DNA of 46,337 nt from an uncultured Verrucomicrobiae bacterium (lineage in GTDB: Bacteria > Verrucomicrobiota > Verrucomicrobiia > Limisphaerales > JAFGQR01). The stretch's first letter is position 1. Every line of letters starts with the position of its first letter. The position numbers and the translations under genes are program-made. Shown piece by piece: positions 688-34,091 of this stretch. The notes beneath the pieces were generated by a model that ran no database searches, was not told where the DNA came from, and worked only from the letters and a program-made list of their open reading frames with translations. Location of the stretch: NCBI GenBank assembly GCA_963788655.1, contig CAWBHS010000093.1, forward strand, positions 1 through 46,337, given 5' to 3'.

Positions 688-3600
688 ATGAACATCACAA
701 AACTTTTCGTTGGGGTTGCGCTTTTGATGACCGCGATGTGCGGCGCGCAAGAGCTGACCGAACCTGGGTGGATCAACACCTTGAAGTGGATCGAGGCCCA
801 GCCCGCAAGCGAAGGCAAGGCCACTTCGATTTCCGCCGAAGGCGCCGGCGGAGTGAGCATGATGGAGGGGGAAGGCGATTCGGCCATTGCCGAAGCGAGT
901 ACCCCGGAGATCGAAGCCTTGGCGCGGGGATTGGTCGCCGGACAAGGCGGACCGGACAATCCAACCGGCGCCAAGCGCATCTTCGATTTCGTGCATGATC
1001 ACATCCGGCATGTGTTCTATTTCGGCTCGAAGAAAGGCGCCCAACTGACGCTCCTGGAGCGGAGCGGCAATGACTTCGACCAGTGCGCGCTGCTCATGGC
1101 CTTGCTGCGGGCCGCCGGCTACCCTGACGCCAACTACCAGTTCGGCCTGCTTCAAATGCCGTATGACCGGGCCGACCACCAGGACCTCCGCCACTGGCTG
1201 CAACTGAGTGTGGTCAACACGAACTGGCCCGCTACGCGCAATTATTTTGGCTATCTCCTGGCCTCACGTGGCTATCCCAATGGCGCGTTCTATTATTTCG
1301 ATGCGACCAATACTCTCGGGTTCCACCGCGTATGGGTGAAACTACCCATTGGCGGGACGAATTACTTGCTCGATCCCGCTTTCAAAGTGAGTGAGCCGAT
1401 TGCGGGCGCCAATCTTCCTTCGGCGATGGGTTTGGACACCAACGCCCTGGTGAGTGTGGCCGGTGGCACCCACACCGCCGACTACGTCCAGAACCTCAAC
1501 GAGCCGGCCTTACGCAACACTCTGGGCAATTACACCAGCAACCTGCTGGTTTCGCTGCAAAACAACCTGCCGAACGCTCGCGTGGTGGAGGTCCTGGGTG
1601 GTTGGGAAATCCAGCCCAGCACGAACCCCGCGTTAAGCCAATCCCTGCTCTTCCCCGGCTACACCGGCAGTGGGTTTGCCTTGATTGAATGGGACCACCA
1701 GCCGACCAACCTGATGGCCCAGTTCACGGTTTCCTTGGCGGGCACCAATCACCACTGGTGGATGCCGGAATTGCAGGGTCAGAGGCTGGCGCTGACGTTT
1801 GATTCCAACGCGCTGGCCGAGCTGTCGCTGGAAGACCAAATGGTGGTGACGAACCAGACCACCGGCAGCAACACGTTGGAGGTCGTGCTCAGTGTGGATC
1901 ACCCGCACGGAACGTGGAGCACGGCAAACAACACGCTGGTGCATACCAATTGGCATGATCACACGCTGACCAATTCCTACGCACGCACCAATGCGAGCTA
2001 CGCGCTGGTCTATGCCTTTGAGCCCAGCCGGGAGGTGCTGCGATACCGGCAGGGCCGGCTCGACGCTTACAAGTCCGCGGGGTTTGATGACGCCTCGCGT
2101 GACGTAGTGACCGAAACTTTGAACGTCATGGGTTTGAGCTATCTGCTTCAGTTCGATCAAGCCGAATTGATGATCGAGCAGCAGCGAGATTTACTGCACC
2201 AAACCCACCACCGGTTTGGTCGCATGGGCCAGGAGAACGGCAAGGGATACTACGGGGACGTTTACATGTATCTCAGCGGGTCGCTGCCGGCCAGCGGGGC
2301 GGGGACCGCCGACTGGACGCGCTGGCAGCAAGGTTATGAGGTGAGCGCCTATTTTGGCAGCGCGCTGGAGCATGGCGTCATCGAGCAATTGCAGTCAAGC
2401 AACCTGCTGGCCGCTTCCACCATGAAAGTGCTCCAACTGGGCAACACCAACTCCCTGAAGACCTTCCTGGCAAGCAGCGCCAACTGGAGCAGTATCCATG
2501 ACCAATTGACGAACTATTATCTGCCCAGCTTGAATAATCTTATCAATGATCATTTCCTCCTCCTGTTGCCGCAAGACGGTTTGATCCGGCTCTCAGACGC
2601 GGGCAGTTGGACCGGTTACGGTATCCTGGGCCGACGCGACTTTCAGGGCGAATACAGCATGAGCATGCTGATTGGGGGCGCCTACTCTGGCGGCTATAGC
2701 GCGTATCCGAATGTCACGGTGAATCCTGATTACGTTCAACAAACCGCGGCCAGCCAGCCCACCTACTTCGATCCCAATGGGGCTTTCAATTCCACTTCCT
2801 CCAGCGCCGAACCCGTCCGGCTCAGCGACGGCGCGTTCGAAGTGGGGACCACCGACCTGGCGCTGGGCCAGGCCGAGCCGCGTGGCTTCAGCTTCCACCG
2901 CTATTACAACTCCGCCCGCCGTCAGCACAACCCGGCCGGCATGGCGGACGGTTGGACCCACAACTATGCGTTCCGGCTGGATGAACTCAGCGCGCCAGCC
3001 GCAGGCTTGGGGGATACCACTCCGGCGCAAATGGCGCCCATGCTCGTGGCCACACGCGCCGCCTTGGAACTCTACAGCACCAATGCCGATCCCAAGAACT
3101 GGCTCCTCACGGCGCTTATCGCCAAATGGGGCGTGGACCAACTTATTAACAACGCGGTGTCCATCACGCTGGGGCAGGATACGGTTCAGTTCATCCGGCA
3201 GCCCGATGGAGTGTTCACCCCGCCGGCCAACTGCACGATGACCCTGGGCCAAGCCGGGGCGAATTACAGCCTGTTCCAACGCCATGGCAACACCCTCCAG
3301 TTCGACGCCAACCAACGGCTCACCAACATCGTTGACCAATACGGCAAGGGCCTGGCGCTGACTTACAACGCCAGCAACTGGGTGGCGACGGCCACCGATT
3401 GGAAGAACCGCACCTTGACGTTGAATTACTCCGGCACGCCGTTGCGCTTGACCTCCATCTCCGATGGGACCCGGACGGTTTCCTACGGTTACAGCACCAC
3501 CTACAATTCCAGCGGCGACTTGACTTCGATAACCGACCCGGAAACCGAGACCAGCACGCTGGTCTATGACACCAACCACCAGATCATCGCCACTGGAGAT

Positions 3601-6600
3601 GCCTTGAGCCAGACGGTGGTCAGCAACCTTTACGACGGGTTTGGCCGGGTGATCGAGCAATATACCCAAGGCGATCCCAACAAAACGTGGCGCTTCTATT
3701 GGTCCGGCTTCGCGAATACCGAGGAAGATCCGACGGGCGCTCAGCGGAGGTTCTTCTATGATCGACAAGGGCCGGGAGATCGGCCAGGAAGACGCGCTGG
3801 GAAACGTTCGTTGGACTCACTACGACGGCCAGGATCACGTCGTTGCGACGGTTTCGCCGTTGAATGAAGAAACCGTCCTCGAATACGATGACCAGCACAA
3901 CCTCGTCAGTTCGACTGATCCGCTGCACCACACCACCACCTACAATTACGACTCCCAGGATCACTTGACGAGTATCGTGGATGCCAACGAGCACTCCACG
4001 CATTTCGCCTACAACGGCAGACATCAATTGACGGCCATCACCAACGCCCTGGGCGATTGGATCACCAATATCTACAACGCGAGCAACGGCACGCTCGAAG
4101 CTCGTCGCGATCCGGTCGGCGAAACCAGCTTTAACTATGACGGCAACGGTTACCTTTACCTCATCACCTATCCCAACAACCTTGGCAGCGAAGGATTCCT
4201 GAACAACGCGTATGGCGACGTGCTGAGCCACACCAACGGGCGCGGTTTCGTCACCAGTTACACCTACAACGATCGCCGTCAACTCACGGCCACCGTGGCG
4301 CCGACCAACCTCACCGTGTCGGTCACCTACGACCCCGTGGGCAACGTGCGGACCAGCACTGATGCACGCGAGTTCACCGCGACCAGTTACTGGAGTCCCA
4401 CGCGCAAGCCGCTGGGAACCGTGCTGCCGGCTACGCTCCAAGGCACGCCCGCCACCACCAACTTTTATGACCTGCGCGACTGGCTGGCACTTTCCAGAAA
4501 CCCGCTGCAATCAGCCATCAGCTACACCAACGATGCGGCTGGTCGGCTCATCGCCTTTACCGATCCAATCGAACGCACAACGCAGTTCGGCTATGATGCC
4601 GTCGGGCGGCAAACCGCCGCAACCAATGCTGCCTTGGAGCAGACGTACCAACAGTGGAGTCCCCGGAGTGAACTTACGCTGTTTACAGACGGGGCAGAGC
4701 ACACAGTCGGGCGAGGCTATGACGCAGCGGGCAATCAGGTTCTGCTGACCAATCGCAATGGCAAAGTCTGGCAGTTACAATTCGACGCCGCCAACCGGCT
4801 GACCCACACGACCAGCCCTTCGAACCGGACGACGATTCAGACGTGGAACAATCGGGGATTACTGCAATCGGTTATCGAGCCAAGCACGCAAACGGCCAAC
4901 TTGTACTATGACGCTCGCGGCCGGCTGACCAATCGCACGGACAGCGTGGGCACAACGTTTTACCGTTACGACGCCAACAATAACGTTACTGCCATCACCG
5001 AGGCGGGCATGACGAACAGTTGGGGCTTCGACGCCTATGACCGCGTGACCGGCTACACCAACGCGGACGGCTACGTGATCGGCTATCGGCACGATGCCAA
5101 TGGCAACCTGACGAGTTTGATCTATCCTGGCAACCGCACCGTCCACTATGCTTACGACAGCCTGAACCGCCTGACCAACGTCACCGATTGGGCGGACCGG
5201 CAAACATCCTTCGAATACGATCTGGCCAGTCGCCTGAAGAAAATCACCCGGCCTAACGGCACGATTCGCGAGATCAATTACGACGACGCCGGGCAAACGA
5301 CGAACATTGTCGAGAAGACCGGGCGCGGGCCTGCCCCTGGCGTACTTCAAGTTGAATTGGAACGACGCGGCCCGGGTGGAATGGGAATTCGCCGCGCCCT
5401 TGCCGCATGCCTACACGCCGCCGACGCGGACGATGACGTATGACGACGACAACCGCATCGCCACGTTCAACGGCAACAATGTGACGTATGACGCTGGATG
5501 GCAACCTGACCTCCGGGCCGGGTACAAACAACACGTTCATCAGCTACACCTACGACGCCCGCAATCGGTTGGTAGGGACGCTTTCCACAGCGTCCGTGAC
5601 TTACCGTTACGATCCGGCAGGGCACCGCACCGCGATCACCAATGGCGCCAGCGTCACCACATTCGTCATCAACCCGAACGCCGCGCTTTCCCAAGTGCTG
5701 ATGCGCATCAAGCCCGGCGTGACGAATTACTACATTTACGGATTGGGCTTGCTGTACGAAATCACCGAAACCGCCTCCAGCACCACGACACTGACGTATC
5801 ACTACGACTACCGCGGCTCGACCATTGCCTTGACCGACGGGACCGGCAACGTTACCGACCGCGCCGAGTATTCAGCCTACGGCAGCCTGACGTACCGGAG
5901 CGGCACTAGCGACACGCCCTTCTGGTTTAACGGGCGTTACGGCGTGCAGACCGATGCCAACGGCCTGCTCTGCATGCGGGCGCGGTATTACAATCCGTAC
6001 CTGTGCCGGTTCCTGAATCCGGACCCATTGGGCTTTGGCGGCGGGTTGAACTGGTACGCCTATGCGGATGGCAATCCCGTGAGTTGCTTGATCCCTTTGG
6101 ATTGGGAACGCAGGAAGCGAATCGGCTTGGTCGAGGGTGGATGTGTACCAATCGGTTGCCTCTTGGGTCGTGCCGGGACAAGTGGCATGGAACAACGCGT
6201 TAGGGTCGGTGCAGCAAGGCAACTATGGGATGGCCGCGGCATATACTGCGCAAATGGTCGGCGAACAATTGTTGTTTGTGGCAACGTTTGGTCAATCCGG
6301 CGCCGCGACGCCAGCGATGCGGACGACACAAATTGTCTCGAGCCGGCTTGAGAATGCCGCCGCAAAGACAGAAGCGACCGTTCTTGGACACTACCCAGCC
6401 TACACGGAAATGGCTGAACAACTCGGCGCACGGCGTTTCAACGTTCCGACCGAGTTTTGGAACAAGATGACGCCGGCTGAACAGTGGACGGCCAACCAAA
6501 AGTTTTTGGACCGAATGATTAGTCGTGGCGACAACGTCATTCTGGCTACGCCGTTGGACAAGGTCAGGCCCGGAAGTTTCTTCGACCGCGAGTTGCAGTA

Positions 6601-13882: not shown

Positions 13883-14174
13883 CGAATGTTTCCTGCCAGG
13901 CATACGGTTCTCAGTCAATCCCGGCCCAACGCAAGCATTCGGTTCACGGCTCGGTATTCAACACACGGGCTACCCATATCCAGCGCTGTCCTCGCCGACC
14001 TCGGGAACTGATTGCCGACCCCAAGTCCTTCCTGCTGACGCCTCGGAGACAAGCACTCAAACAAAGAAGCAAATGTTGACGCTGGGTTGCAGGTTGCAGG
14101 GGCTTAAAAGTTTTTGCTTGGCAAATGACGGGTGGCTGATAATTAAGGGACAGTTCTTTGAGTTTGAGTTCAGT

Positions 14175-14325
14175 TGCAGCCAAATGACTGGGAACCCCGT
14201 GAGAATCGGGGACGGTTTGCGCCACTGTAACGGGTTACGAGCTCCCACCAGGCCACTGGCCGGGAAACCGCCGGGAAGGCGGGAGCAAGGATAAGCCCCA
14301 AGTCAGGATACCGGTTTGGCTGTGC
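14175..14325 (+). promoter_or_regulatory. Cobalamin (B12) riboswitch
   Basis: GGGAA-CCCCGTGAGAATCGGGG-ACGG...GCCACTGTAA...GCCACTGG...CCGGGAAGG...AAGTCAGGATACC; closing stem CAGCCAAA / TTTGGCTG. Confidence 0.9.
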
Positions 14326-14418
14326 TCGTCGCGGTCCCGCCCACGCGGGATCGGCTTCTCCGTCAAAGAGAAGGATGAGACCAGCCCGTCCTGCGGGTGC
14401 AGGATGGAACCGTTGATG

Positions 14419-14462
14419 GCCTTCATTCACCGCTTTGCCGGAGTCTGAAGGTTTTTTATTTT
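14419..14462 (+). terminator. Putative intrinsic terminator (riboswitch expression platform)
   Basis: GCCTTCA...TGAAGGT stem followed by a T-rich tract, between the aptamer and ATG 14523. Confidence 0.55.
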
Positions 14463-14522
14463 CAGTCTCCGCCTGGTCTCGCAATCCCAAACGTTTGCTT
14501 GTCGAGAATAGAAAGACCAGAT

Positions 14523-15503
14523 ATGCGGCCCGTTATTTTACTTTGCCCCCTGTTGGCGTTTTGCCCATTGATCCCGGCGATTTGCGTTGGAGCAGCGACT
14601 TTCCAGTCGGATTTCTCCACCGATCCCACCCCGCAAGGTTGGCGTGCGCAGGGCGATCCTTCCCTGTTCCATTGGAATGCCACCGATCAGCTTTTGGAAG
14701 TCACCTGGGATTCCTCGCGCGGCAATACCTATTTTTACCATCCGCTGAGAACCATCCTTTCCCGGCAGGACGACTTCCGCCTGAGTTTCGACGTGCGCCT
14801 TGATGATCTTGCAATCGGCACCACGCCGGACAAACCATACACGTTTGAATTGGCCATTGGTTTTCTGAATTTTGACCAGGCCACCAACACTGGGTTTCTC
14901 CGCGGTTCCGGTACGGATTCGCCCAATTTGGTGGAGTTCGACTATTTTCCGGATTCGGGATTTGGCGCGACGATTTCGCCGACCATGATCTCGAGCAACA
15001 TGGAATTCGTTAGCAGTTTCAATTACCCGGTCGAGCTGACATTGCACGAGTGGTTTCATGTGGAGATGAGTTACGCGGCCAGCAACCAGACGTTGATGAG
15101 CAGGCTCACGCACAATGGGGAGGAATTCGCTTCGTTGGAAGACGCGGTGGTCGGAACCGACTTTTCCGATTTCCGTCTCGATACGGTCGCGGTGATCAGT
15201 TACAGCGACGGCGGACAGGATCCCATGTTTGCCGGTTCGGTGCTGGCCCACGGCGTGGTGGACAACTTCCAAGTGATGGTGCCCGAACCGCCCATAGCCA
15301 ATCTGACTGGCGGTATCGCCGATGATCGTTGGCAAGTGCAATTCGACAGCCAGACCAACTGGATCTACCACTTGGAAGCCACCACCAATTTCTTCGAATG
15401 GTCTTCCGTGAACACCGCATCGGGAACGGGCGGTCCTTTGACGATGCGGGACGATCAAACCGCCGGCGCGCACTTTTACCGGGTGCGGGCTGACAAACCA
15501 TGA
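14523..15503 (+). CDS. Secreted hypothetical protein with Verrucomicrobia-type C-terminal 'FYRV' domain; B12-regulated
   Basis: Signal peptide [13 protein letters not shown]...; beta-rich body; ends [12 protein letters not shown]...HFYRVRA. Confidence 0.75.
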
Positions 15504-20296: not shown

Positions 20297-20521
20297 AATG
20301 CCAATTAGACGTTTCTTCGTTTACGCGAATTCTCTCAATAAACTGCAAAATCGATTGTGCTCACCATACAGGTTCTTTGCCTGAACACAATTGCAAAACG
20401 CTTGCTGTGAATGCGCTTTCTTAAGTTTAAACACCGTTTCGGGGAAAAGTTGCATCGCGAAACAGGAATAACGGCTTGTTGAACGAATCCAGTTTGTTAG
20501 CCTCACTTTGTTCACAGTTTT

Positions 20522-20632
20522 CGGACGCTCAAAGAGTTGCTCGGGCACAAGAGTGTGGAAACCACGATAATTTACACGCACCCGAGGCGCAGGCCGGCCC
20601 TGGGCGTGCGCAGCCCATTGGATCAGGAGTAA
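20522..20632 (+). pseudogene. intI: C-terminal remnant of an integron-type tyrosine integrase
   Basis: Translates as [36 protein letters not shown], matching the IntI end (QELLGH..V.TT.IYTH...GVRSPLD); no upstream coding continuation. Confidence 0.75.
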
Positions 20633-29699: not shown

Positions 29700-30541
29700 C
29701 CCCTTTGGTCAATTGCAGACGCTCATTTTTCCACCGGCACCACGCCGCCAACGCGGGCGCGCTGCAGGATCTGGCACAGAACCCCCAGCGCCTCGGCGCC
29801 ACGCTGGGCATGCTGGGCGTGCTGCACACCTGGAGCCGCACCTTGATCCATCATCCGCACGTCCACTTCCTGGTGCCGGGCGGCGGGTTGAGTTTGGACC
29901 AACGCACCTGGGTGCCCGCCCGCAAAAAGTTCCTGTTGCCGGTCCAGGCCCTGAGCGACCACGGCCGCACCTTGTTCCGCCGCCACCTCGCGCGCCATCA
30001 CCCCGCGGCGATGAAGAACATCCCGGCGCCGGTGCTGAGCGCCGCCGAACAAGCCGCGTGGCAGCCGCCCGCCGCTCTGGAGGCCGAGCGCCACGAACCC
30101 GCGGACCCGGACGTGCAACCCGCAACGAGCGTTCCGCAACGCTCCCAGTGTCCGCACTGTGGCGGGGAGTTGGTGCGCGTGGCGCGGTGGCGCGCCGGGC
30201 ATCCCTTACCGCGGCCGCCGCCGGGCCGCGCCCCGCCCGCCCCATGAAAGCGCCCGCGCCCGGCAACCCTTCAAGTCGGAGACTGACGAAGCTCCCCCGG
30301 CGCGGTGTGCTCGCGTCCGGTCCCGAGGTGGTGCCCGCCGGGCGCCCGCGCCGCCAAGCCGCGTTTCGGTCCAGGGCCACGGGGGGATTCCGGAGTCGTG
30401 CGACCCCAGCCGCCGGCTGGGGAGCAAACGGTTGGGGGACGATGGGACCGTGCGGCCGGCGAACCCGCGACACTTTCCGCAAAGGGTTCACCAGGTTACG
30501 CCGGGGCGGGCCGCTGAACCTTCGACGCGGCTTCGTTCAAC
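29700..30541 (+). mobile_element. IS91-family (Y2/HUH) transposase remnant with internal deletion, plus 3' end
   Basis: GMLGVLHTWSRTLIHHPHVHFLVPGGG HUH motif and C-terminal CPHCGG; N-terminus and Y-xxx-Y region missing; ends GCGGCTTCGTTCAAC. Confidence 0.8.
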
Positions 30542-30657
30542 CCTGGAATGCAGAGAACCCGGGGGCGAAGCGCTCCGACTTCAAACCTTGATCCTGTTCC
30601 TCCAACCCCCCAGTCTTCGCGCCCCCGCGTTCTCTACATTCCTTTCTTCTGTTCGGC
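30535..30657. other. attC-like integron recombination site (orientation ambiguous)
   Basis: GTTCAAC-CCTGGAATGCAGAGAAC...GGGGGCG...CGCCCCC...GTTCTCTACATTCC...GTTCGGC imperfect hairpin bounded by AAC and GTT. Confidence 0.6.
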
Positions 30658-31082
30658 GGCTTGCGATACAACTCAACACGCTTGATGAGGCGGAACGCTG
30701 GACGCTGCCGACGGTCATCGAACGTCCGGTGGTAAACACGCAACTCGCTTCCGCTGCGCGTCACATACAACTGATCGCGCTGATGCTTCACAACTCCGGC
30801 AAATACAGAAATCACCGTCTTGGGAATACCCTCGGCCTGATACTGGTCAGGCAAAATGGAGGTCGAAACCCACTCCGCCGACCGAAACAACATGACCCGC
30901 TGCCCATCGACCGTGAGATGCACAGTGCCAGCCGGTGTGGAATTAGCATCCGGCTCAAGCTGGACAAACCACGAAACCGAAACCTTCGATGGAGACTTCA
31001 CGCCAAGTGAAACACTCGACTTGTCTGCTCCTGCGAACGCTGTCATCGCTGCAACGGCAAATAGAAAAATGCAGGTTTTCAT
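30537..31082 (-). CDS. Integron-cassette-like secreted hypothetical protein (181 aa)
   Basis: MKTCIFLFAVAAMTAFA signal peptide; ATG a few bases after the reconstituted GTTAGGC; ORF reads into the attC-like hairpin. Confidence 0.6.
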   Translation of the reverse strand: MKTCIFLFAVAAMTAFAGADKSSVSLGVKSPSKVSVSWFVQLEPDANSTPAGTVHLTVDGQRVMLFRSAEWVSTSILPDQYQAEGIPKTVISVFAGVVKHQRDQLYVTRSGSELRVYHRTFDDRRQRPAFRLIKRVELYRKPPNRRKECRERGGAKTGGLEEQDQGLKSERFAPGFSAFQG

Positions 31083-31094
31083 GGTGTGTGACGC

Positions 31095-31911
31095 ACCGGG
31101 TAGGCGTAGGCGGTCACCCGCCCACGCCCCCCTAAGAACCGGACTTGAAAGTTTCCCTTCATCACGGCTCAAGCCTCTCCAAGGCCACCCCGGATGCGGG
31201 GGACCCGCGTAACCAGGAGGCCGGTGACACCCAAAGGCGTCATGGACCTTCCCAATCCCACTTGGCAATACCGGTCGGCGGCCATATCGCGCTCGGCTCC
31301 TTTGGGCCGCAGCACCGAGAGGCACCAAGCGACGGGCGTCGCTCGTCCTATGCTTCTCTCGCTTGAAGGGGTTCCGCTGATTTTCTTGCCAGGAGACACC
31401 AGATCGACGTGGGCCTATCCGGTCCATTACCGACCGGCCTTGGCTTGTTCGATCCTCTTCATGCTGCCTCCCCTGGGCCTGCCTTGCGGTCGGCTTGCCT
31501 GGATACTCTCCAGGCGGGAACTGGCAGCTTTTCCATGTTCCGCATTCTCCACAGGATGGGTTAGGTCCACTCTGTACACCGGCGGTGCGCCATTCGCGTC
31601 GGGCTACGTTAGACAGCCCGAACTTGACCGCTGGCCTTCTTTTGGCCGGAGCCTTAAAACAGCCTCGTCTGGCTCGTTCCTCTGACGATGCTTGCGAGTG
31701 TTCACGTGGGTTGACCCTACCATCCAATTCTAGCGCCGCACCCGGATTGAGGCTCCCAGGCTGGCTACATTGTCGGGAAGGCTTCACACCCTGGACAGTA
31801 GCCTTGCGGCCGCCCGCCCAACGCATGCTTCCCTGGAATACCTGCCGCGAAAGGCAGGACTGAGTCAGGTTGCCCATGCTCAGCAGTGATGAATGCGACT
31901 TCATGTCACAA
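31095..31911 (-). ncRNA. ORF-less group II intron (IIB-like), 817 nt
   Basis: 5' TTGTGACATGAAGTCGC; domain V GAGCCGTGATGAAGGGAAACTTTCAAGTCCGGTTC; domain VI GGGGGCGTGGGCGG...CCGCCTACGCCTACCCGGT; no RT ORF. Confidence 0.85.
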
Positions 31912-32035
31912 CTAACGATAGAAGTGAGCCACAGGTGCTGGCAGTAAACTCCCGACGAAGAAGAGGATCGTCAGATTACCCGTGACGCCCTGACTGCTGT
32001 GACGGGCACCTGTTGCCTCCACTGGCTGGTTGAAC
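31912..32035 (-). other. attC site with its R' box split by the intron
   Basis: GTTCAAC-CAGCC-AGTGGAG-GCAACAGGTGC...GCACCTGTGG-CTCACT-TCTATC-GTTAG|GC. Confidence 0.8.
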
Positions 32036-32291
32036 GAAGCCGCTGCGCGGCGGGAGAGGGAGGAGGCGGGCTCGCCTGCGGCTCGGAGGGTTAGGCTGCC
32101 GGTGGTTGGGGCTTTCATTGGGACTCCGGTTGGGTTTACGCTGGGGCGTCCGGACGGCATTTTCGGGTCGCTCCGGACGTTGCCAATGTTAACTCAAATA
32201 GCATGTACCATGATTAAAAAAAGACTTCCCCGTACGCAATCCTAAAGCGCTTCGTCATTGGAATCCGGGATGGGTCAGCCTGGAATGGCGC

Positions 32292-32630
32292 TTAGTTAAG
32301 GCCTAAAACTTTCTTGGACAGACGTTTACGGCGACGGGTATCGGGGAGGGTTCCGAAGATGAATTGACGGCTCAGCTGCTGCATCCGGTCCAGAATGCGC
32401 TCGACCTCTCGCCAGTTCTGGATGGCCTCCGCCAAGGCCTCGTACTGCTCTCGTGACAAAGCCACCGACACGGTCTTGCCACGCTCCTTGCGCGTCCATT
32501 GATAGTGCGGGCCGCCGGCCCCGGGCCCGCGGTCTTGGACGTAGCCTTGGCTGATCCAGCCCGGCCGGGCCAGTTGGGTCTGCAAACGGGCGTATTCCGC
32601 CTCCAGCGCAATGCGATTGACTTTCATGAA
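32292..32630 (-). CDS. IS-associated small protein (DUF6788-like); start codon uncertain
   Basis: GPHYQWTRKERGKTVSVALS motif; lies inside the IS, divergent from the transposase. Confidence 0.65.
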   Translation of the reverse strand, partial: FMKVNRIALEAEYARLQTQLARPGWISQGYVQDRGPGAGGPHYQWTRKERGKTVSVALSREQYEALAEAIQNWREVERILDRMQQLSRQFIFGTLPDTRRRKRLSKKVLGLN

Positions 32631-32677
32631 TAGAGAGGATAGCACGTTCGTCAATAGGGCGGTATATATACCGCCCT

Positions 32678-34091
32678 ATGCATACGCCCTTCTTCCCCCA
32701 GTTCCGCCCCCGCCTGGCCCCCTGCCGCCGGCGCCTCACCCAAACTGTCCGCCACGCCTCCTTGGCCCAGCTCGAACACTACTTGGAAGGGATCTTCCCA
32801 CCGCACCTCCTGGCCCAAGAGGACGAAGGCCTCAACAGCCGGGACCGGATCTTTAGCCTGCGGCTCACTTTCCAGTGTTTCCTGTGGCAACTCCTCAAAC
32901 CCAAGACCGCCTGCCGCGAGGTCGTGCGCCAAGTGCAGGCCCTCTTCCGCCTCAAGGGCCGGGGTCCGGTCGACGAGGATACCGGCGCCTATTGCCAAGC
33001 CCGCCAGCGCCTGCCCAAAACGCGCCTGGAACAGATCGTGGCCGCCACGGCCGCCACGGCCGATCAAAGTCGTCGACGCCTCCTCCGCTCAGATGCCCGA
33101 TACCCCACTGAACCAGCAACGGTATCCCCAGCCCGCCGGGCAGAAGCCAGGCTGCGGCTTTCCCGTGATCAAGTTCCTGCTGCTCTTCTCGTTAAACAGT
33201 GGCTCAGTGCTCAACGCCGTCATGGGTAACCTCAGCCAGCACGATCTGCGGTTGGTGCGCCAACTGCAGGGCCAACTCCGGAAGGGGGACATCCTCTTGG
33301 GTGACCGGGCCTACGGTGAGTACGGCACCTTGGCGTCCTGGCCGCTGGCCGGCGTCGATGTGGTGGCGCGCCTGCACCAAGCCCGCAAAGTCGATTTCCG
33401 CAAAGCCCGCCGTTTGGCCAAAAACGACGCCCTCTTTGTCTGGCGCAAAGGTCCGTCGCAAACGGATATTTTCTCCCGCAAGCAATGGGATCAGTTGCCC
33501 GACCAGATCACCGGGCGGATCGTGCGCTTCACCGCCGTCATTCGCGGCCATCGCGGCCGCCGCATCACGTTGGTCACCTCGCTGCTGGACCCCAAACGCT
33601 ATCCGGCCGAGCAACTCATCGGCCTCTATGCTCGCCGCTGGCGACTGGAACTGTGCCTGCGCGACCTCAAGACGACGATGGGCATGGAACTGTTGCGCGG
33701 TCAGTCGCCCGACCTGGTCGAGAAGGAACTGTTGATGTACCTCATCGGGCACAATGTCATCCGCTGCCTCATGGCCCAGGCTGTCGCTCGCCACCAAGTC
33801 GACTTGGAGCGCGTCAGCTTCCGGGGGACCGTCGATGCCGCGCGTCAGTTCACGGCCGCGATCCTGCAAGCCCGCAGCCGCAAAATGCGCGATCAACTCT
33901 GGGAGGATCTCCTGTTGAGTTTGGCGCGAGACTTGGTCCCTTACCGCCTCAACCGATCCGAGCCGCGCACACGCAAACGTCGGCCCAAGCCCTTCCCGTT
34001 ACTAACCAAACCACGGCGGCAGTTTAAAGAAGTCTCACACCCCAACTACTACTGGAAAGCCAAGCCCCGCAATTACCGCGCCCTTAACTAA
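32678..34091 (+). pseudogene. IS4-family DDE transposase, frameshifted/short deletion near 33060
   Basis: N-part RDRIFS...AYCQARQRLP; second frame IKVVDASSAQMPDT...GDRAY...LYARRWRLELCLRDLK. Confidence 0.85.

Follow-up and report, generated by a model that had tools for sequence, protein, structure and literature searches.

Mobile group II introns that habitually target the attC sites of integrons have been described as IIC-attC introns (S.ma.I2 and relatives), which insert into the bottom strand at the R″ end (TTGT/T), lie antisense to the cassettes, and combine a small class C ribozyme with an IBS1 of 3 to 4 bp located 3′ of the stem-loop (PMC3001079, PMC4424553, PMC7923331). Due to this antisense orientation, such introns cannot be spliced from cassette transcripts. 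Reviews present attC targeting as a class C trait and let all other lineages home to ordinary sites (PMC4424553). UHB.I2 is a group IIB1 intron with a CL1 intron protein (IEP), the ends UUGCG..GU, and cassette orientation, and it lies immediately after an attC site (Sonbol and Siam 2021, Mob DNA 12:8, PMC7923331). According to the title of supplementary Fig. S7 of that paper, the sequence upstream of the intron is the attC top strand; poor exon conservation among its homologues was reported (PMC7923331). The TeI3/TeI4 introns of Thermosynechococcus elongatus are CL/IIB1 relatives (Mohr et al. 2010, PMC2882425). Their ORF-less forms carry a domain IV deletion of roughly 1.5 kb, are present in more copies than the ORF-containing forms, and were demonstrated experimentally to be mobilized in trans by driver IEPs (PMC2882425).

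The window analyzed here is a stretch of 46,337 nt on contig C93 of an uncultured Verrucomicrobiae bacterium, whose assembly comprises 8.96 Mb in 115 contigs with 59.6% G+C. A sequence-only reading of the window had proposed an ORF-less group II intron inserted precisely in the R′ box of an attC site, on the cassette strand. Two Rfam matches at gathering level bear out the intron, which is 817 nt long (Table 1). Domain I was matched by group-II-D1D4-7 (RF02012) at 31859-31734 on the minus strand with 61.9 bits, above the gathering score, and domains V and VI (D5-D6) by the full Intron_gpII model (RF00029, positions 1-77) with 49.6 bits against a cut-off of 40. No RT-type ORF was found inside the 817 nt. 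On the minus strand, the sequence across the intron reads ...ATCGTTAG/TTGTGACATGAAGTCGC...CCTACCCGGT/GCGTCACACACCATG (slashes mark the intron ends) or, in a second rendering of the same strand, ...CACTTCTATCGTTAG/TTGTGACATGAAGTCGC ... GCCTACCCGGT/GCGTCACACACCATGAAAACC. The termini are 5′ UUGUG and 3′ GU, as had been read, instead of the canonical GUGYG ... AY, and they recur in every copy within this genome except one, which ends in GC. Excision of the intron restores GTTAGGC (GTTAG/GC), the attC R′ core, and the ATG of a 181-amino-acid ORF is the 13th base of the 3′ exon, 12 nt after the intron. The Intron_gpII alignment places an AGC triad at 31167-31169 and puts the predicted branch A seven bases before the 3′ end, at 31101. 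RNAalifold with nine relatives yielded 166 pairs, 38 of them with compensatory changes on both sides, which supports the domain I-III fold.

Table 1. Features of the intron and its surroundings in the window
Feature	Position	Strand	Basis or remark
ORF-less group II intron, 817 nt	31095..31911	-	Rfam matches, 7-copy family, collinearity with RT-encoding relatives
Domains I-III and start of domain IV (intron nt 1-570)	31342..31911	-	RNAalifold, group-II-D1D4-7 match
EBS1 CUAACG, loop of GGGCUGU-CUAACG-UAGCCC	31607..31612	-	Complementary to 5′ exon end CGUUAG; varies with target
Domain IV remnant after deletion of the IEP ORF (limits approximate)	31207..31341	-	Alignment to the long copy on C44
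Domains V and VI	31095..31172	-	Rfam Intron_gpII
attC 5′ part: R″ GTTCAAC 32035-32029, L″/L′ arms, R′ start GTTAG 31916-31912	31912..32035	-	attC model R1
IBS1 CGTTAG	31917-31912	-	5′ exon end
Last two R′ core bases GC (GTTAG/GC), now start of the 3′ exon	31093..31094	-	Sequence; empty sites
Downstream cassette ORF, 181 aa	30537..31082	-	Signal-peptide-like N-terminus, no Pfam family
Upstream ORF, DUF6788	32292..32654	-	Pfam PF20586, E 1.9e-10

Two frames around the insertion were rejected as genes. A 455-codon ATG frame at 30537-31904 (minus strand) starts at intron base 8 and runs through the intron into the 181-amino-acid ORF; it showed neither RT nor family matches and was put down to the high G+C content as an artefact, although automatic annotation is likely to report a single protein here. 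An 82-codon frame at 31912-32160, likewise lacking family matches, was treated as a non-gene.

The hairpin upstream of the intron was compared to a covariance model of attC (R1), for which 20 unoccupied sites of this genome had been used. The window hairpin passed this comparison with 47.4 bits (E 3e-9) and was the sole match in the 46-kb window; the match spans 31910-32035 on the minus strand, so that the final two model positions fall on the first two intron bases. When the 141-nt attC region was folded as DNA, a z-score of only -1.44 was obtained; thus, energy alone does not single out the attC, whereas the model-based test does. The site reads GTTCAAC ... GTTAG/GC, and its arms pair with one mismatch and two extra bases in the 5′ arm. 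These extra bases identify the intron strand as the attC top strand, running from R″ to R′. Within the genome, all 13 visible 5′ junctions, including those of RT-encoding relatives, follow GTT[A/G/C]G, and each is preceded by a similar imperfect hairpin composed of xxxxAAC, a short unpaired spacer, an arm, a variable center, the complementary arm, a spacer, and GTT[A/G/C]G. Model R1 matched 12 of these 13 occupied sites, the window's included, the exception being the site on C80, which keeps only the 3′ arm. Insertion in the R′ box, as had been proposed, is thus backed both by the restored core and by empty sites with the same kind of ending.

Intron and ORFs are read in the same direction, away from intI. 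The proposed cassette-sense orientation was confirmed in two arrays, since attC sites and introns share their orientation there and oppose intI. On contig C49, intI lies on the minus strand (288364-289293), and the attC sites extend on the plus strand from 290282 to 295284 with a plus-strand intron in the last attC; C59 shows the mirror image (intI plus, attC and intron minus). Three integron-integrase genes of the genome exceeded the TIGR02249 cut-off, two with a stop and one intact. About 80 attC-type sites, clustered on many contigs, were found by a home-made scan that also caught unrelated palindromic repeats, which were filtered by AAC[AC]A before counting, and counts of empty sites are therefore approximate. 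Near-perfect palindromic repeats of about 125-160 nt, which start with xAACGTGCTGCCGGC..., occur over many contigs of the genome on both strands and are not attC-like; examples are C4:70701-70861, C17:5225-5349, C22:184425-184552, and C72:42395-42522.

The attC of the window is solitary, and neither a second attC nor an intI was detected in the window. Upstream lies the DUF6788 ORF, probably the cassette that owns this attC, followed by an IS-type transposase at a distance of 1 kb and by ordinary chromosomal genes. This DDE_Tnp_1 transposase ORF (33093-34091, plus strand; upstream with respect to the cassette strand) could explain the detachment of the attC from any array. A short frame at 20519-20626 (plus strand; 43 amino acids open) matches the C-terminal end of TIGR02249 with an E of 5e-8, far below the cut-off, and could be the remnant of an integrase, at a distance of 11 kb from the solitary attC. 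The window further contains a cobalamin riboswitch (14149-14333, plus strand; RF00174, 80.2 bits) upstream of an ORF at 14397-15503.

The genome harbors seven ORF-less copies of the intron (816-817 nt, 98.5-100% identity), located on C93, C80, C49, C17, C59 (twice), and C9, together with four longer copies and four fragments. The flanks diverge exactly at the intron ends, every copy has different flanks, and the seven ORF-less copies show seven different 3′ flanks. The divergence of these seven flanks fixes the boundaries at 31911 and 31095, which had been placed correctly from the window alone; empty attC sites of the genome ending in GTTAGGC, GTTAGCC, or GTTGGCC also back them. An empty allele of the window site, sought via homologues of the 181-amino-acid ORF in 40 related genomes, was not obtained, as no homologue was found there. 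The only other match to this ORF was a 40-residue fragment in the same genome (C56:901-1020), 95% identical to its C-terminus; 450 nt further on follows an intron fragment from the 3′ part (nt 415-813, C56:1471-1868), and an attC is adjacent (C56:495-620).

The longer copies measure 2209-2220 nt and are located on C99, C44, C46, and C50. The first three are about 90% identical to the 817-nt form over nt 1-568 and 88% over nt 726-817, while the copy on C50 is 74% identical. Their RT/maturase (IEP) frame stays open for 505 codons on both C44 and C99, carries an interruption in C46, and is broken in C50. A search for RT-encoding relatives had been suggested, and these four copies answer it, with all visible 5′ junctions located in attC R′ boxes. 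Over nt 1-570 and 705-817, the 817-nt form aligns collinearly with the RT-encoding relatives of 2209 nt; between approximately 570 and 705, the ORF has been deleted. Global alignment of the domain IV remnant with the full-length copy on C44 revealed only short scattered matches, and the start-codon region is kept but mutated. Over the first 252 nt, the ORF-less form is 99% identical to the long copies, and the remainder shows 75-92% identity, a pattern that suggests exchange between the two forms.

An ORF deletion in domain IV alongside related intact IEP genes in the same genome corresponds to the TeI3 arrangement, and the presence of seven nearly identical copies in different sites points to mobility that would be driven by the sister IEPs. 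Around domain IV, the ORF-less form and the long copies share only about 80% identity, so that recognition by the IEPs of the latter is not assured. Alternatively, the copies could be inert relics that were spread by duplication or by IntI shuffling of an intron-bearing cassette instead of by retrohoming. The insertion lies 3′ of the G/TT crossover, so that the intron would travel with the downstream cassette, several copies are truncated, and both intI genes beside occupied arrays contain a stop. However, seven full copies with seven different downstream sequences and different upstream attC sites cannot be produced by cassette shuffling, the copies are 98.5-100% identical, and occupied sites fit EBS1 better than empty ones do (see below). 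We therefore regard inert relics as a very improbable explanation and retain retrohoming as the preferred one.

The window intron had been called IIB-like on the basis of its 5′ end, and this assignment held. The IEP of the long copies (P0001; 502-505 amino acids) contains RVT_N, RVT_1, and GIIM domains, and no HNH endonuclease domain was found by the domain search. Among PDB entries, T.el4h was by far the best match (E 1e-167; residues 6-483 aligned with residues 5-480 of 562), followed by LtrA (IIA) with 1.7e-38 and GsI-IIC with 7e-34. Judged by the IEP of these full-length sister copies, the lineage would be of the chloroplast-like/IIB1 (CL/IIB1) type, a placement that rests on the PDB matches with T.el4h as the best. 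Class C introns carry a CGC triad. With domains I-III of about 570 nt, an AGC triad, and an IEP far closer to T.el4h than to GsI-IIC, the intron belongs to class C neither by ribozyme nor by IEP.

Pairing of EBS1 with the 3′ end of attC had also been anticipated. Indeed, the loop of a domain I hairpin (Table 1) is complementary to the 5′ exon end over 6 bp, and the two vary together in relatives. In nine attC-type relatives from other assemblies, the loop is the exact complement of the exon end: it reads CGAACG where the exon ends in CGTTCG (a Limisphaerales MAG), AUAACG where it ends in CGTTAT (a Marinobacter genome and another gammaproteobacterium), and CUAACG where it ends in CGTTAG (six further relatives). 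In five sister introns located in ordinary non-attC sites, the same loop is exactly complementary to their own, quite different exon ends. This co-variation fixes EBS1, confirms the junctions, and shows that EBS1 has been retuned within the lineage to match each local R′ sequence. No intron position paired consistently with exon positions -15 to -7 across 19 relatives, so that EBS2 was not found, and two candidate loops that had been seen by eye in A1 were dropped. Similarly, TeI4h's EBS2 could not be assigned without ambiguity according to a figure legend (PMC2882425). An EBS3 partner was not found either, and the 3′ exon +1 base is G, C, or T behind near-identical introns.

Occupancy of the sites agreed with this pairing. 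The 13 occupied sites comprise GTTAG (10), GTTGG (2, forming a G-U pair), and GTTCG (1), while the empty sites (n = 75, approximate) comprise GTTCG (32), GTTAG (16), GTTGG (12), and others (15). The enrichment of GTTAG in occupied over empty sites (10/13 versus 16/75; Fisher p 1.8e-4) is as expected for EBS1 CUAACG. It is conceivable that the intron inserts at any CGTT[A/G]G by means of EBS1 alone and that purifying selection spares only those copies that lie in harmless, transcribed attC sites. This explanation fits the observation that EBS1 pairing alone could be demonstrated, without EBS2 or EBS3, that two targets (C80 and the metagenomic L148) do without a full hairpin, and that sister introns with another EBS1 home to ordinary sites. 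Yet the genome contains 12,412 CGTT[AG]G hexamers, of which only about 40 are part of attC-type sites, and all 13 junctions are attC-type; many intergenic hexamers should be just as harmless, and other phyla show the same restriction to attC. We thus consider a safe haven of this kind unlikely. Since all junctions lie at attC-type sites despite the large number of hexamers, six base pairs do not suffice for targeting, and under the preferred reading of directed attC targeting the extra specificity could come from IEP contacts with the L′ arm, from DNA structure, or from selection. IBS1 sits within the R-box stem, so a folded attC hairpin would compete with EBS1 pairing.

The same kind of site is used outside this genome. 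Of 16 UUGYG-type 5′ ends found elsewhere, 15 follow GTTNN, where the part from the sequence collection refers to the matches listed. A pattern scan of this collection with the first 16 bases of the intron returned at least 80 loci from at least 119 matches, of which 75 of the 80 listed were chance matches in unrelated sequence, and it is no census. The five true introns among the matches listed (two Limisphaerales MAGs, a Pyrinomonadaceae fragment, and two gammaproteobacteria) all lie behind GTTNN, as do UUGYG-type introns on seven metagenome contigs that were found via the IEP. The Limisphaerales relatives are in keeping with a verrucomicrobial host genome. In a same-order sample of 200 genomes, 18 matched, and three of the seven junctions seen were UUGYG-type behind GTTNN. 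The hairpin was evident in 12 of these 15 GTTNN cases, lost at the contig end in two, and not evident in one (L148). The remaining 5′ end, of the UUGCG type (L152, position 1598), does not follow GTTNN; it lies 300 nt upstream of the 5′ end of another intron and may be a fragment. Here and in L153, two intron 5′ ends (about 1598 and 1896) stand 300 nt apart upstream of one IEP gene, which may reflect a nested or tandem arrangement. Relatives starting with GUGCG or GCGCG occupy other kinds of sites, some inside conserved genes.

The termini had been read as co-varying, which holds only in part among the relatives: six of eight introns starting with U end in GGU (U1 with a penultimate G), and both introns starting with G end in GAU (G1 with a penultimate A). 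A quick IEP tree of 77 rows scatters the attC-type introns over three or more positions, separated by non-attC sisters; it leaves out L148 and L189 (<400 amino acids), eight rows had one stop read as X, and many of its 5′ ends are unknown. Because of this scatter, a single origin of attC targeting is not claimed. In another genus of the same order (L271/L266, G182:C5, about 89491-89728), an internally deleted copy with nt 1-147 joined to about 456-542 lies behind an attC ending in GTTCG. Around the R″ of that attC, 47 bases are 91% identical to window positions 32012-32057, while the interiors of the two attC sites differ. On one metagenome contig (L186), group II domains of another type, D1D4-3 and a second D5-D6 (2969-3040 and 4790-4970, both minus strand), lie on the opposite strand just downstream of the attC-type intron, so that several introns crowd one cassette region.

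With IIC-attC introns, the window intron shares habitual targeting of attC and an IEP without endonuclease. It differs by its IIB-like class, by a 6-bp IBS1 inside the R′ stem, and by its top-strand, sense insertion, where a IIC-attC intron would be found on the bottom strand at R″. The likeness to UHB.I2 is greater: that element shares the IIB1/CL1 type, nearly the same ends (UUGCG..GU), the sense orientation, and a position right after the hairpin of an attC top strand. The IEP printed for UHB.I2 shows visible homology to that of the present introns, and the homologous D1 loop in its printed sequence reads AGAACG. UHB.I2 occurs as one ORF-containing copy on a metagenome contig, whereas a copy burst and ORF-less forms are found here; the UHB.I2 paper (PMC7923331) describes neither of these, nor does it describe an insertion within R′ or a pairing between EBS1 and the R′ core. 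With TeI3/TeI4, the intron shares the ORF-less-plus-driver arrangement, T.el4h being the best structural relative of its IEP; those introns differ by canonical ends, varied non-attC homing sites, and a 562-amino-acid IEP with an En domain (502-505 amino acids here). Literature searches, whose coverage excluded subscription journals, returned no further report of a non-class-C intron at attC. The sequence-only reading had proposed a separate attC-targeting lineage, and class, strand, and position indeed set it apart from IIC-attC introns, but it is not wholly new, given the published UHB.I2 (PMC7923331). In the publications found, the lineage is known from this single element; what is new is the burst of copies, the form without an ORF, and the evidence from co-variation on how the site is read.

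Taken as a whole, the comparative data make it highly probable that the window carries a non-autonomous, ORF-deleted CL/IIB1-type intron of a lineage that retrohomes into the top strand of attC at R′ (GTTAG/GC) and reads this site mainly by EBS1-IBS1. The lineage would insert into the cassette-sense strand after the fifth and before the sixth base of the R′ core, reading its target mainly through the 6-bp pairing of the loop CUAACG with the conserved CGTTAG at the attC end. Besides domains I-III, V, and VI, the 817-nt RNA retains the basal part of domain IV. Splicing and mobilization are presumably carried out by the endonuclease-less RT/maturase of the 2.2-kb sister introns, in analogy to TeI3/TeI4. 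Because the intron lies in the sense strand, it could be spliced out of cassette transcripts, and because it lies 3′ of the G/TT crossover, it is physically part of the downstream cassette. Splicing, mobilization in trans, and effects on IntI recombination or cassette expression are inferred. Public sequencing runs were uninformative on splicing and expression: the best run contained a fraction of 0.23 of the words, a spliced joint was not listed, and no record bridged a junction by 31 letters. Portions of the intron or of close relatives did appear in contigs, from one DNA run and three RNA-library runs. In a promoter and terminator scan of 30400-32700, no terminators were found, and one promoter-like site outside the intron was not above chance.

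These findings indicate that a IIB/CL lineage targets attC by another route than class C, namely by full-length pairing of EBS1 with the R′ core, on the opposite strand and in a spliceable orientation. This would constitute a second, independent solution to living in integrons, accompanied by a burst of gene-less copies in one genome. Such introns give rise to extended ORFs that are spurious (455 codons here), and they interrupt attC sites, which may then be overlooked by cassette-finding software. We tentatively propose, as a possibility that we hold to be rather doubtful, that this IIB-type family uses the integron as a vehicle. Homing to R′ would make each copy the first element of the downstream cassette, to be carried along at excision and reintegration by IntI, which would account for the occurrence of the family at attC sites in Verrucomicrobiota, Acidobacteriota, and Gammaproteobacteria, where EBS1 is adjusted to the R′ sequence of each host. 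ORF-less riders would multiply at the expense of a few driver IEPs, and the replaced last two R-box pairs may alter recombination of an occupied attC. The family thus offers a natural system for how an intron RNP handles a hairpin-forming DNA target and a possible route for the joint spread of retroelements and cassettes.
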